DNA of 26,292 nucleotides, from IMG/VR virus record IMGVR_UViG_3300029183_000040, positions 1-26,292 of that record. One strand, 5' to 3'. Shown one piece after another: positions 17,759 through 24,411 of this stretch. This DNA comes from a virus. Lineage: Duplodnaviria > Caudoviricetes. The notes beneath the pieces were generated by a model. The model was not told the DNA's origin, did no database searches, and saw nothing but the letters and a program-made list of their open reading frames with translations. Each line of letters opens with the position of its first letter. Position 1 is the stretch's first letter. A program made the translations under genes and the position numbers.

Positions 17759-17931
17759 GGCGGGTTGGGCATCTGCTCGGCCCGCGAGCGAAGCGAGCCT
17801 TAGACCCCCGCCCCCGGGGGTCGAATTATGTGCGAAGCGCATTAAACCACTGGGGTACCCCGGCGAAGGCCCCACCCCCGGTTTGCATGAGGAGGGGCCC
17901 CGCTGGATACATTCCATATTTTGGATATTAT

Positions 17932-18185: not shown

Positions 18186-18214
18186 TTGACAGAGGACTAT
18201 CAGGGGCGTATAGT
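18186..18214 (+). promoter_or_regulatory. Near-consensus sigma70 promoter for the spike module
   Basis: TTGACA-17 bp-TATAGT. Confidence 0.78.
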
Positions 18215-18252
18215 AGTTGGTATCGACCCAGTGTCAAGCCTTGGAGAATGCT

Positions 18253-18468
18253 TTGTTCGCTAATTCAGCCGCAGTGACCCCCAGTGATAGTACGGAGCAA
18301 TCATTCTCTATGCTCTTCGTAGGCGCCACGGGTAATCTCGCCATAGAGGACGAGAAGGGCGTTCAGACTACCTTTACGAATGTGCAGGACGGCCAGCTGC
18401 TGCCAGTGTCTGGTTTCAAGGTTCTTGCGACGGCAACCACGGCCACCAACATCGTGCGTATGTGGTAG
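18253..18468 (+). CDS. Head spike base protein, RcGTA Rcc01079-like
   Basis: AVTPSD....LFVG..GNL......G...TF..V..G.LLP....VLAT.TTATNIV..W is the recalled Rcc01079-family pattern; GGAG RBS before TTG at 18253. Confidence 0.8.
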   Translation: MFANSAAVTPSDSTEQSFSMLFVGATGNLAIEDEKGVQTTFTNVQDGQLLPVSGFKVLATATTATNIVRMW

Positions 18469-18474
18469 AGCCTG

Positions 18475-19221
18475 ATGAGTTTAGGTTCCCGCCGTTGGCT
18501 TCTGTCTATGTGGGCCTCGCTGTTCCCCGTCGGGGGGGTGGTAGCGTTCACACCCGACATACTCTCTAATCTGACATTCTGGTTAGACGCCTCTGACGCA
18601 TCCACCCTAACCGTGGTGGACGATGTGGGCACTGATCGGGTAACTTCTTGGCGGAGCAAGGCCGGTGCCACCCGGGATATGCAGCCCCCGGCGGCCATAA
18701 ACAGGCCGGAGAGGATAACCGATGGAGTTCGGTTTGATGGCGTCGACGATTTCATTGAGCTATTGGAGAGTTCTGGTCTGGATTGGACTGATGGAACCCT
18801 TGTAGTTGTCTATAAGTCTAATGACACCTCGGTGTCCCCGCATATATTCAATGTATCGTCGGGCAGTTCCGATCGTCTAAGGTCGGGAGTGAACTTATTT
18901 GAGAACCCGACACTGTTCATAGCGTCTGCAACCGGAGACGCCCTTCCTTTTCTCAGCACAACGTCGACTAATTTGCAGACTATAGTCATGGATTGGGAAG
19001 GTGGGGTATCTGCGACGATACGGGATAGGAATGGAAATACAAGCACGGACAGCTCGTTCGGACTTCCCAGCCTTGACTATGACAAGATAACCGTAGGGCA
19101 GAGGCCTACGGGCGTTCGTTTCTCCGGGGATATTTTTGAGATTATACTATATAGTGATAGGAAAACATCCATTGATATTGATCGAATACTTCAGTACACT
19201 TTGGATAAATGGGGAAACTGA
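18475..19221 (+). CDS. LamG/ConA-like jelly-roll head-fibre/spike protein
   Basis: FWLDASDASTL..VTSWRSK..Q....RP..GVRFDGVDD and FSGDIFEIILY motifs; follows the spike base gene. Confidence 0.75.
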   Translation: MSLGSRRWLLSMWASLFPVGGVVAFTPDILSNLTFWLDASDASTLTVVDDVGTDRVTSWRSKAGATRDMQPPAAINRPERITDGVRFDGVDDFIELLESSGLDWTDGTLVVVYKSNDTSVSPHIFNVSSGSSDRLRSGVNLFENPTLFIASATGDALPFLSTTSTNLQTIVMDWEGGVSATIRDRNGNTSTDSSFGLPSLDYDKITVGQRPTGVRFSGDIFEIILYSDRKTSIDIDRILQYTLDKWGN

Positions 19222-19289
19222 GCAGCCCGCTGGGGGCGGGTTTCAGCGACGGAACGTTCTGGACGGATGCCACTGGCTGGGCGGAGTAG
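19209..19289 (+). CDS. Hidden 26-codon ORF / -1 frameshift extension of the LamG protein
   Basis: MGKLSSPLGAGFSDGTFWTDATGWAE; overlaps a G_GGA_AAC slippery site and fills the gap up to 19293. Confidence 0.6.
   Translation: MGKLSSPLGAGFSDGTFWTDATGWAE
19212..19246 (+). other. Putative -1 programmed ribosomal frameshift signal
   Basis: In-frame G GGA AAC, then TGA; hairpin AGCCCGC-tgggg-GCGGGTT starts 5 nt after the heptamer. Confidence 0.6.
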
Positions 19290-19292
19290 TGC

Positions 19293-21509
19293 ATGGTAAG
19301 TAACATAGATGCTACAAAACCCGTGGACGGTGTGCCTGCTGTGAAGCAGGATATACGGGACAATTGGACGGCCGCCAAGACAGAGGTAGAGAGCCTGCAG
19401 GGTGAAACAGCTTCCATATCGACACCGCTTGGCACGCCCTCGGTGTTCCCTTTAGGCGCTCTCCGGGCAGTTAATCAGGGCCTGTCACCTTTCCACTTCA
19501 CCCCCGACCCCACTTTCATAGGGCGAGGAGCGGCGAAGCGTTTGAGCACCGAATATGCTACAGTTGCGGATGCTCAGATGGCGTTCCCCCTGGTGGCGTC
19601 GGACTTAGCGGGGCAGGATCTGTCCGACATTACGTTTGACGAGGTGGCGTTGCAATCCATGAGCGAGGCCGCACAGCAGAACGGCAATGGCGTCCCTCTG
19701 CAGCAAGTACCATCCGGCATATTCGATGTAAGAACATGGAAAGTGGTCCGGGGGGATGCCTTCAGGACTGCGGAAGTCCGGGGAGCCGGTCGAGGCAAGG
19801 GGTCGGATCTGGCCGGCACGTGTATACGATCCTACGTTGGTGACAGACCTTGCGTATCCATACAGGGCGCTCGCCATGTGAAATTCGGGGGGCTCACTCT
19901 GCAGGGGATTAACACTGCAGGGTCCTACTCCTCCGGGAAACTAGCCGCTAAAGATCCCTCCTTGTGGTCTCTGGGTCCCTCTACTATAAATGAGGGGAGG
20001 TATAGTCCGTACGTAGGGCTGGCCGTGGACCCCTACACTACGGACCCCGGCTCAGGGCAGGGGTACTCAAGTGATCCATATGGGAGAGGTACATCAAGCC
20101 AGGTCCACATAAGTGATGTGCATCTACAGTGGTTCTATGCGGGGTTTGGAGTAGGGTTGTCTGATGATGCGGAACTTGGTGACAGCTTAACCTTGTTCAA
20201 GGTAGATTGCAATGCAAATGCCTACGGATGCGTGTCGGGCGGGTCTCAGAATAGAATACTTAGTTATTTAGATGGGTATATGGAGGGAGGTTTCCGTTGT
20301 TTTGACAATACAACATTCGGTCGTGGAGCAGGAAACGCTTTTCAGGTAAGTAATCTTGTTATGGTTCTATTTTATGAGTTATTCAACTATTCTGACACTG
20401 ATCCAATAACTTTTGACAGTGCTCATCTAGAGCAGTTCGTCAGGTTGGGGACCTATATCGGGGGCGTGCAGAAGTTCCCGTTTACTATGCGAAATAGTCA
20501 TGTGAAATTTTGGGGCAGTTTGGACGACAGTGTGCATCGTCCCGCGTCTCACATGCTCAACAAGGGGGGCAGGGCTGTGTTCTCTGCAACCCGGTTTGAT
20601 ACTGTGACAAGCGCCGCTACGTCGTTCCCTGGGCTTTTTAATTTCATAGGGCGTGGGGCGGCCGACTACGTATTTACTGAAAGCTGTACTTTCTTCCAAA
20701 ATGCTATACAGCCTAACAGGTGTCGTATCGGGTACAGTCGATTGGATGAGAACCCGGTGAAGCATGACGGAACCGTGTTCTCCAGCGGGCTGTCCGCTGA
20801 CAATTCCCAGGTAGCGGTGCGCCAGGGCGGTCTGGACGATGTTGTCAATGTATCGAGCATTGCTAATCAGGGCATGAATTTGCCGGCCCGTATTGGTGCC
20901 AGTGTCCGAACTCACACCGTTCACATCCGGGGGGCAGGAACTTTTCGGTACGAGCCCGGCTCTGTGGTCCCCGGCATCTCGGTACCGGGGGTTACTAACC
21001 CGTCCATCACTGATCAGACCTATGACGTGGGCGGCACATCGTATGACTATCGGCGTCTGCAGTTTGACACAACTGACGCGGCCATGTTTCAGCTGAATGA
21101 CATCCTGGCCGCCAGGCATCTGGAGGACAGCCCTACCGAGACGATGATAGGGTATGTCGAGAATATAAGTGGCAGCACCGTCGACGTGTTTCTGACCGTC
21201 GACGACGCGGAGTTGGTCAGCCCTGTAACAGCCCTTCAGTTGGTTGTTCATTCGGAATGGGCCCCGAGAACATCCCCCCAGGGGGTGTGCAGCACCTCGT
21301 TAGATACAGTTACATTTTCCACAGACATATCCGACACGATATACCCCGGGGACCACATTCAGGGCTCTGCCGGTACGTGGACGAACTTCCGGGTTGTGTC
21401 TGTGGCTGGTGACGGGTTGTCGCTTGTTTTGAATAAGAACGCCCCGGTCACCGGGGTTGTCGATTTATACTGGGGTCGGCTTCACGAGCTTACGGGGACG
21501 GCACAATAG
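19293..21509 (+). CDS. Tailspike/fibre with probable beta-helix (pectin-lyase-like) depolymerase domain
   Basis: Anchor-like N-terminus (SNIDATKP...RDNW.AAK.EV..LQ), VPSG.F and VRGAG entry to a beta-helix, Gly/Ser/Asn-rich beta pattern; GGAG RBS. Confidence 0.75.
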   Translation: MVSNIDATKPVDGVPAVKQDIRDNWTAAKTEVESLQGETASISTPLGTPSVFPLGALRAVNQGLSPFHFTPDPTFIGRGAAKRLSTEYATVADAQMAFPLVASDLAGQDLSDITFDEVALQSMSEAAQQNGNGVPLQQVPSGIFDVRTWKVVRGDAFRTAEVRGAGRGKGSDLAGTCIRSYVGDRPCVSIQGARHVKFGGLTLQGINTAGSYSSGKLAAKDPSLWSLGPSTINEGRYSPYVGLAVDPYTTDPGSGQGYSSDPYGRGTSSQVHISDVHLQWFYAGFGVGLSDDAELGDSLTLFKVDCNANAYGCVSGGSQNRILSYLDGYMEGGFRCFDNTTFGRGAGNAFQVSNLVMVLFYELFNYSDTDPITFDSAHLEQFVRLGTYIGGVQKFPFTMRNSHVKFWGSLDDSVHRPASHMLNKGGRAVFSATRFDTVTSAATSFPGLFNFIGRGAADYVFTESCTFFQNAIQPNRCRIGYSRLDENPVKHDGTVFSSGLSADNSQVAVRQGGLDDVVNVSSIANQGMNLPARIGASVRTHTVHIRGAGTFRYEPGSVVPGISVPGVTNPSITDQTYDVGGTSYDYRRLQFDTTDAAMFQLNDILAARHLEDSPTETMIGYVENISGSTVDVFLTVDDAELVSPVTALQLVVHSEWAPRTSPQGVCSTSLDTVTFSTDISDTIYPGDHIQGSAGTWTNFRVVSVAGDGLSLVLNKNAPVTGVVDLYWGRLHELTGTAQ

Positions 21510-21797
21510 ATGACCAGGACCGTTGGCGCGTATAACAAGACCGGCACCTATGCGAACGGCAGTCAGCTATTTTGCAAGCGTGGCCATGCTGTCATTGGTG
21601 ACAACGCGGCACCTAGGAAGCAGAAGACCAAAGATGGCCGCTGGAGGTACAGCGTTCTATGCGTGATATGTCGACGGGCGAACTGGAGGGCCTATCATTC
21701 CCAGGGCTCGGCCGCCATCGCGCGTATGATCAATAAAGAGCGGGACAGTCGTCCACAGATAACGGCCTTGGATATCGCTAAGAGGAGAGCCCGGTGA
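21510..21797 (+). CDS. Small basic protein resembling the HNH-associated C-terminal Cys/His domain
   Basis: FCKRGH....N.......CVICRR; no HNH catalytic core. Confidence 0.6.
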   Translation: MTRTVGAYNKTGTYANGSQLFCKRGHAVIGDNAAPRKQKTKDGRWRYSVLCVICRRANWRAYHSQGSAAIARMINKERDSRPQITALDIAKRRAR

Positions 21798-23816: not shown

Positions 23817-24073
23817 TGCCCGCGCCGGTTCCGCCCGACAAAGAACTCCGGAGCGTCGCATACGGTATGCCACCGGGTTCCTTGGCATGGCCCCTATGGA
23901 CCAGATTGACAATCCGGACAGCGAAGTGTTTGTGCCCCTGGAGGATCGAACCGAGAAAGAGAAGGCGAGGTTCTTCAATAGAGCAAGCCGCAAGCAGAAT
24001 GAAAGACTTGTTATATGGGATTGATTGGGGTATGATTGTCCGGTGGACCTCTTGGTCACGGAGATATGCATGA
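23816..24073 (+). CDS. Hypothetical protein
   Basis: Coupled at both ends (TGATG at 23814-23818, ATGA at 24070-24073); an alternative frame ends at 24024. Confidence 0.45.
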   Translation: MPAPVPPDKELRSVAYGMPPGSLAWPLWTRLTIRTAKCLCPWRIEPRKRRRGSSIEQAASRMKDLLYGIDWGMIVRWTSWSRRYA

Positions 24074-24411
24074 GCGTTAGGAAGGCAATTGAGTCTGTGG
24101 CCAGAGTTGCGAAGAGGGCGGCCAAGTCTGTTGTCAAAGACCCCATCGGCTCGGCCGTGGGTTTTGCTACACTCGGCGGGGTCGGATCGGCCGCGTCTCT
24201 GCTTGGCGATGCGGCTACACCAAGGCCAGGGCCTGCCCCGGAGGCCGCAGTAACAAGGTCGCAGCCTGAAGATGTTGACGCTGTGGAAAGGGAAGCATCG
24301 GGCGCAGTCGATGATGAGACGCGTCAGCGGCGGGGCAGGGCGTCTACGCAGGTTGTTAGAAGCTTGCTCGGCCCGTCCGGGTCTGGCCGCCGAACTCTAC
24401 TGGGGGTATAG
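24070..24411 (+). CDS. Small virion protein preceding the portal
   Basis: GGAG RBS; C-terminal RRGRAST...RTLLG pattern typical of the pre-portal gene of BPP-1/T7-like podoviruses. Confidence 0.75.
   Translation: MSVRKAIESVARVAKRAAKSVVKDPIGSAVGFATLGGVGSAASLLGDAATPRPGPAPEAAVTRSQPEDVDAVEREASGAVDDETRQRRGRASTQVVRSLLGPSGSGRRTLLGV

Follow-up and report, generated by a model that had tools for sequence, protein, structure and literature searches.

The window analysed here is the whole 26,292-base record IMGVR_UViG_3300029183_000040 of a tailed virus (Duplodnaviria; Caudoviricetes), and our subject is the junction within it between a LamG-like gene, likely encoding a head fibre, and the gene for a predicted beta-helix spike. 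The junction belongs to a cassette, lying between an HNH gene and the terminase gene, that comprises a head-spike base protein, the LamG-like protein, a short open reading frame (ORF) in the -1 frame, and a spike of 738 amino acids (aa). The features on which the argument turns are as follows.

18217 to 18468, plus strand: head-spike base protein of the RcGTA Rcc01079 family (NF048002, 55.8 bits against a cut-off of 28; PDB 6tb9, E 8.8e-8)
18475 to 19221, plus strand: LamG/ConA-like protein of 248 aa, likely the head fibre that the base pentamer binds
19172 to 19200, plus strand: weak promoter-like match (9/12), ending 8 nt before the ATG at 19209 and near chance level
19206 to 19208, plus strand: TAA stop that closes the -1 frame immediately before ATG 19209
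19209 to 19289, plus strand: ORF in the -1 frame, coding for 26 aa when started at its own ATG; entry by frameshift would instead add 23 aa (19218-19286)
19212 to 19218, plus strand: slippery heptamer G GGA AAC in correct X XXY YYZ phase, directly ahead of the TGA stop at 19219-19221
19224 to 19242, plus strand: 7-bp stem-loop, 5-nt spacer after the heptamer, stability marginally above expectation
19242 to 19280, plus strand: three-aromatic motif FSDGTFWTDATGW, aromatics at 1, 7 and 13, likely a fibre-docking loop
19293 to 21509, plus strand: spike of 738 aa with a predicted pectate-lyase-like beta-helix (Atlas feature score 0.95, PF12708 cluster)
19293 to 19403, plus strand: spike N-terminal domain, an extended arm plus a helix at 18-39, a widespread attachment module and likely dock partner

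The 248-aa ORF at 18475-19221 closes TGG GGA AAC TGA, while the -1 frame reaches its stop at TAG 19287-19289 and the spike ATG follows at 19293. A sequence-only reading of this DNA had proposed that a programmed -1 frameshift extends the fibre, on the strength of the heptamer, the 7-bp stem and the open -1 frame; on recheck all of its coordinates for these elements were correct. Because the TAA at 19206-19208 closes the frame upstream, the -1 frame can be entered only within the 13-nt stretch 19209-19221, and the heptamer lies inside that stretch. There are 11 in-phase heptamers in 7628 codons, and among the ten examined the one at 19212-19218 is the only case at a gene end; with the codon usage of the window, the probability of a complete heptamer given W-G-x is 0.012. 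The hairpin, whose 5-nt distance from the heptamer is canonical, has a folding energy of -12.8 kcal/mol in 32 nt (z -1.39, equalled by 17 of 200 shuffles), a stability matched in 67 of 1500 synonymous recodings and at 15 of 464 coding positions. The reading had also raised the possibility that a missing base would fuse the two frames. Contigs of depth 366 and 1060 cross the junction with no difference and no gap, which speaks against an assembly error there, with the qualification that these runs are possibly the source of the window rather than independent of it and that contigs drop rare variants. No RNA data set was listed as containing the sequence, a result without bearing on expression. 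Separately, an in-phase G GGT TTT occurs mid-gene at 24158-24164 (ORF 24025-24411), with a stronger hairpin (-14.1) and 34 open -1 codons.

The sequence of the -1 frame peptide argues that it is not a product of chance. The motif expression matched once in the window, as compared with 0.015 times per shuffled window; the aromatics are F1, W7 and W13, and every consensus position is intact except for one G-to-A change, at a position that also varies in relatives. The consensus [FW]-x-D-G-T-x-[FW]-x-D-x-T-G-[FW] is found again, in frame, within tail and neck proteins of phages, as well as in many mini-proteins. Exact-motif scans gave 0 loci in one case and 1 locus in the other; a looser scan of viral contigs gave 68, from which L104, L114, L125 and L132 were set aside as looking like repeats or chance. 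In the remaining loci the motif is in frame: it lies in distal-tail proteins (PHROG 1302), in tail proteins of about 600 aa, C-terminally in members of a beta-helix family, or within an ORF of 49 aa. We take the ~600-aa tail proteins for nozzles from their size and position; those with two motif copies precede N-terminal-domain genes in relatives. A profile search yielded 270 longer motif proteins, the best 120 of which divide into 60 C-terminal, 33 nozzle-sized, 21 distal-tail-sized and 6 other cases. It also yielded 120 motif proteins of at most 86 aa, including 56 of at most 50 aa with the motif at the end; these 56 come without genomic context and some may be fragments.

Other searches returned little. 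The peptide had no match by tblastn among GenBank phages, where a mini-protein had two chance matches only, and neither a PDB sequence match nor a Foldseek match. Profiles of the mini-protein and of the spike domain found no match in a 401-genome sample, a search that had no positive control and is thus uninformative. Scans for motif plus domain gave 30 metagenome and 20 genome matches, of which one in the 50 is real (L187).

In 39 of the 120 short motif proteins, leaders that a loose pattern picks out as twin-arginine-like are followed almost directly by a W-S-D-G-T motif, and many of these leaders include a lipobox-like Cys; these proteins fall within P0255-P0366 (e.g. P0272, P0309, P0332 (Marinivivus)) and may be secreted or lipid-anchored docks, acting as cell-surface anchors or decoys, or peptide precursors. 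Within P0256-P0351 there are stand-alone families of 32-42 aa with hydrophobic N-termini (MLISAYYG-type, MIGAMRAL-type) and the motif at the end; the two such proteins tested had no NCBIfam match. PHROG 25 head-closure homologues occur with or without a C-terminal W-D-D-G-A-T-x-W tail (L009 compared with L043, L061 and L065), and in L060 and L066 the tail is inserted internally, which shows that the motif is mobile.

The partner of the motif is likely the N-terminus of the spike. The spike as a whole, whose enzyme activity and trimer state we infer, had no Pfam, PHROG or NCBIfam match. Its first 37 residues form a module present in 121 proteins at E<=0.001, with a confident model (pLDDT 88.7) that had no Foldseek match, nor did its sequence match the PDB. 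At 36 of 78 viral module loci (20 of 48 clusters) a three-aromatic motif (period 6 or 7) is encoded no more than 2.5 kb from the module on the same strand, as compared with 0 of 78 on the opposite strand and 0 of 62 control loci, counts that come from an expression written after seeing the data and from controls unmatched to phage structural regions. The reverse relation is looser and the pairing not exclusive: of 68 motif loci, 13 have the module within 2.5 kb, and a record that is 82% complete carries the motif and gave no match to the module. The motif often ends the gene immediately before the N-terminal-domain gene, as in RP13 ORF46/45, L056, L061 and L187. Judging from this co-occurrence and by analogy, the motif likely docks the spike N-terminus. 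The docking tail envisaged in the sequence-only reading is supported by the recurrent motif class, by its co-occurrence with the spike N-terminal domain family and by its likeness to solved three-Trp dock loops. The peptide is very likely functional as a dock.

The LamG-like protein itself has no Pfam match, while three of its seven homologues carry PF13385. Its model is of low confidence (pLDDT 55), and the best Foldseek matches are trypanosome sialidases and a cyanophage tailspike (E about 1e-7). It is likely a head fibre, a location that we draw from gene order: the upstream gene is a head-spike base of the Rcc01079 family, which supports the head-fibre label first given to the LamG gene, and the same base-then-fibre order is found in phage P8625. 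In an alignment of eight family members K245 is invariant and W246 is present in seven, and the LamG stop falls at the usual C-terminus of the family. The base gene probably starts at TTG 18253 (Shine-Dalgarno (SD) score -6.4), because the longest ORF, from 18217, begins within the likely transcription start region and GGAG precedes the TTG.

Our best explanation, which we judge about as apt to be right as wrong, is that a minority of the RcGTA-type head fibres acquire the dock through a -1 frameshift; in this estimate the low prior that the relatives give is balanced against how rarely such a heptamer and such a hairpin would occur together. At the TGA most ribosomes would terminate, giving the 248-aa fibre, while a minority would slip -1 at G GGA AAC and read 23 more residues to the TAG ending at 19289, giving a 271-aa fibre. 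As in RcGTA, each base pentamer on a capsid vertex would hold a single chain, here the LamG protein, and the tail of the 271-aa form would offer its F and two W residues to the N-terminus of the likely trimeric spike next door, one for each of the three subunits, the three aromatics bridging a 1:3 symmetry mismatch as in SU10 and Pa223. The shift rate would then set the share of vertices bearing lectin only versus lectin plus beta-helix spike. Frameshifting is the single most likely route, and it could operate together with a mini-gene.

The relatives weigh against this explanation. We compared expression routes at 34 loci with the motif, made up of 29 of the 36 co-occurrence loci, L122, L187, two annotated phages and the window itself. 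A heptamer in the overlap with the upstream gene is found in the window only and at none of the 33 other loci, the heptamers in L020 and L045 being at positions unable to join frames. Eight loci are stand-alone mini-genes (L187, L122, L016, L038, L048, L051, L027 and L014), six of them in the -1 frame by way of TGATG, TAATG or ATGA with 1- or 4-nt overlaps, so that lying in the -1 frame does not by itself speak for recoding. The closest parallel to the window, L187, has no slippery site, and both it and L122 have SD scores as weak as that of the window. There is no heptamer at the end of the LamG genes of L001, L082 and L126/L212 (the last two being one contig). The sequence-only reading had looked to homologues for a conserved heptamer or a tail fused in frame. 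The searches turned up no orthologous base-LamG-dock-spike locus (scanning viruses with the base protein gave none, and the motif is lacking in five annotated base loci), which does not amount to a failure of the conservation test, and no PF13385 row, hence no in-frame LamG-plus-motif fusion, appears among the best 120 of the 270 longer motif proteins. Features of the window itself point the same way: over longer folded stretches the hairpin is unremarkable (z -0.12, -0.16 and -0.77), the heptamer is partly forced by the protein, since TGG GG of the conserved K-W-G end of the LamG family supplies its XXX, and the hydrophobic N-terminus of the LamG-like protein lacks the alternating Leu-Gly repeat of RcGTA. 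It is also conceivable that the main site of the spike could be a dock loop on an unseen tail protein, because the record ends soon after the portal gene. The frameshift claim, with its in-phase heptamer, hairpin and open frame, is plausible and stands unproven, relatives using an in-frame motif or mini-genes without slippery sites.

A serious rival, ranked below the frameshift and in our estimate possible though doubtful, is the independent 26-aa peptide that the sequence-only reading had itself offered as an alternative. A separate mini-gene from ATG 19209, expressed by translational coupling or from a near-leaderless transcript, would make a free adaptor with its N-terminus on the virion and its motif docking the spike, the heptamer being a by-product of K-W-G-N. 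The eight stand-alone mini-genes and the 56 motif proteins of at most 50 aa in the protein collection speak for this, as does the 9/12 promoter-like match ending 8 nt before the ATG. However, the 13-nt overlap is unlike the 1- or 4-nt overlaps of the other checked window gene pairs and of the mini-genes, and the ATG has a poor SD (-2.4 kcal/mol), a weakness shared with L187 and L122. Such an ATG is also created by any Lys-Trp pair written AAA TGG, and AAA makes up 32% of Lys codons. As a free peptide the 26-aa ORF would have an 11-residue lead-in with 2 hydrophobic residues, as against a lead-in of at least 15 residues in 56 of 56 short motif proteins and at least 3 hydrophobic residues at positions 2-11 in 46 of 56, a comparison biased against very short ORFs, which gene callers miss; fusion to the fibre would supply the anchor that the free peptide is missing. 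A mini-gene moreover requires a 1.2% heptamer and a 4.5% hairpin to coincide. That coincidence would also burden the idea that the ORF is a relic, not usefully expressed, whose dock segment came with the spike gene by recombination or whose in-frame fusion was broken by a one-base loss in the G run, the spike docking elsewhere, e.g. on a tail protein outside the record. The position of the LamG stop at the family's usual C-terminus fits a relic, as do the motif tails that often travel directly upstream of the N-terminal-domain gene, the two-motif ~600-aa tail proteins that precede such genes in relatives, and the lack of any known strong expression signal; but the motif is intact apart from the one G-to-A change, and the deep contigs give one fixed sequence, and we consider a relic improbable. 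More improbable still, to our mind, is that fusion arises through transcriptional slippage or phase variation in the G4-A3 run at the junction, or that the fused tail binds something besides this spike. Such runs are short for polymerase slippage, and no indel variant appears in the contigs, limited as these are for rare variants. The motif does also occur without an N-terminal domain nearby, and on Tat/lipoprotein-like leaders, yet adjacency and co-occurrence favour this spike as the partner.

Two further candidates were considered. The gene before the L122 mini-gene was dropped as a spike base, since it showed no similarity. In L126 (1286-1291) and L127 (147-152), both in reverse strand numbering, the LamG stop (TAA or TAG) is directly followed by an in-frame GTG opening a 421-aa beta-helix protein with the motif at its C-terminus; stop readthrough is less likely there than the simpler separate gene, with its own start at the GTG, which has GGAG upstream.

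The wider window contains replication genes, a terminase, a PF12236 portal and a Bbp19-like gene; the record is a podophage-like fragment that ends before the capsid and tail genes. Ahead of the base/fibre/spike cassette there is a promoter-like match, the best of 8 in the region (shuffles gave 3.2 +/- 1.7), with a presumed promoter function.

18186 to 18214, plus strand: sigma-70-like promoter match TTGACA-17-TATAGT (11/12)

Contigs of the runs X1 and X2 have an 18-nt insertion relative to the window at the intergenic position 17903. Lower-depth contigs in these runs share a 44-nt stretch with window 21537-21580 while their flanks differ, pointing to a related phage or a repeated element.

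Taken together, a fuller picture can be drawn, which we hold as possible and well short of probable. A programmed -1 frameshift would build a branched head appendage, with plain lectin fibres next to fibres whose portable three-aromatic plug carries a trimeric depolymerase on capsid vertices; slippage would set the lectin-to-enzyme ratio, and the plug and its 37-residue socket would form a mobile pair, placed on nozzles, distal tail proteins, head-closure proteins, mini-adaptors and, here, a recoded tail. If this is true, recoding would control the number of enzymatic capsid spikes, beyond adding a folded domain, and two known devices would be newly linked. Even without the frameshift the locus brings to light a recurrent plug-and-socket pair, a 13-15-residue aromatic loop and a 37-residue N-terminal domain, which the Pfam, PHROG and NCBIfam models all missed here. 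The plug is often on ORFs too short for annotation, and the pair would give a rule to predict the virion attachment sites of unannotated spikes.

The literature searched, which lacked most subscription papers, describes no recoded head-fibre dock and no pairing of this motif with this domain; other attachments are described in PMC13320782 and bioRxiv 2026.07.19.739414. Frameshift-extended virion proteins are established for the T3/T7 major capsid protein, A2, A118/A500 and PSA, and for Ig-like tails (PMC5009743, PMC5221750; see also PMC10885494). The window resembles these in that a slippery site at the gene end would yield long and short forms, and differs in that its extension would be a 23-aa peptide on a vertex fibre that docks another protein, where theirs adds an Ig-like folded domain to a major capsid protein or a tail protein. 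The haloarchaeal virus HCTV-1 naturally shifts frame at G_GGA_AAC (PMC5009743). A point against efficient recoding is that in E. coli A_AAC promotes shifting far less than A_AAG does (PMC5009743), and a low shift efficiency is expected for that reason.

In RcGTA, an Rcc01079 base pentamer holds one Rcc01080 fibre chain by its N-terminus (PMC7296036). The window has a homologous base (NF048002, PDB 6tb9) followed by a likely carbohydrate-binding fibre gene, although its fibre lacks the I-A-L-G-L-G-L-G-L repeat of the RcGTA N-terminus, and the accessible text describes neither a recoded tail nor a trimeric spike on the RcGTA head fibre (PMC7296036). The capsid spike gp52 of Pa223 is, as is proposed here, a trimeric spike displayed on the capsid through an N-terminal domain, of ~40 residues; unlike the arrangement proposed for the window, gp52 attaches straight to the capsid, at its threefold axes, and uses neither a base nor a fibre nor an adaptor peptide.

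The docking itself finds its parallels in two phages. A nozzle loop of SU10 docks a trimeric fibre through W839, W847 and W857 (PMC9509320), and the FAL loop of the Pa223 tail hub does so through W363, W370 and W377 (bioRxiv 2025.06.11.659172). No sequence or fold link was found between the window peptide or domain and these structures among the PDB chains searched. The likeness lies in three aromatics on a short loop, with possible pseudo-threefold docking of a trimer N-terminus. The spacing is 6 in the window, 8/10 in SU10 and 7/7 in Pa223, the last matched by period-7 W-D variants in relatives. The window loop is encoded out of frame, following a head-fibre gene, and is not part of a tail hub or nozzle; relatives carry the motif in distal tail, head-closure and ~600-aa tail proteins. 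By analogy, then, we regard the window loop as working like the dock loops of SU10 and Pa223, without classing it as one of them.

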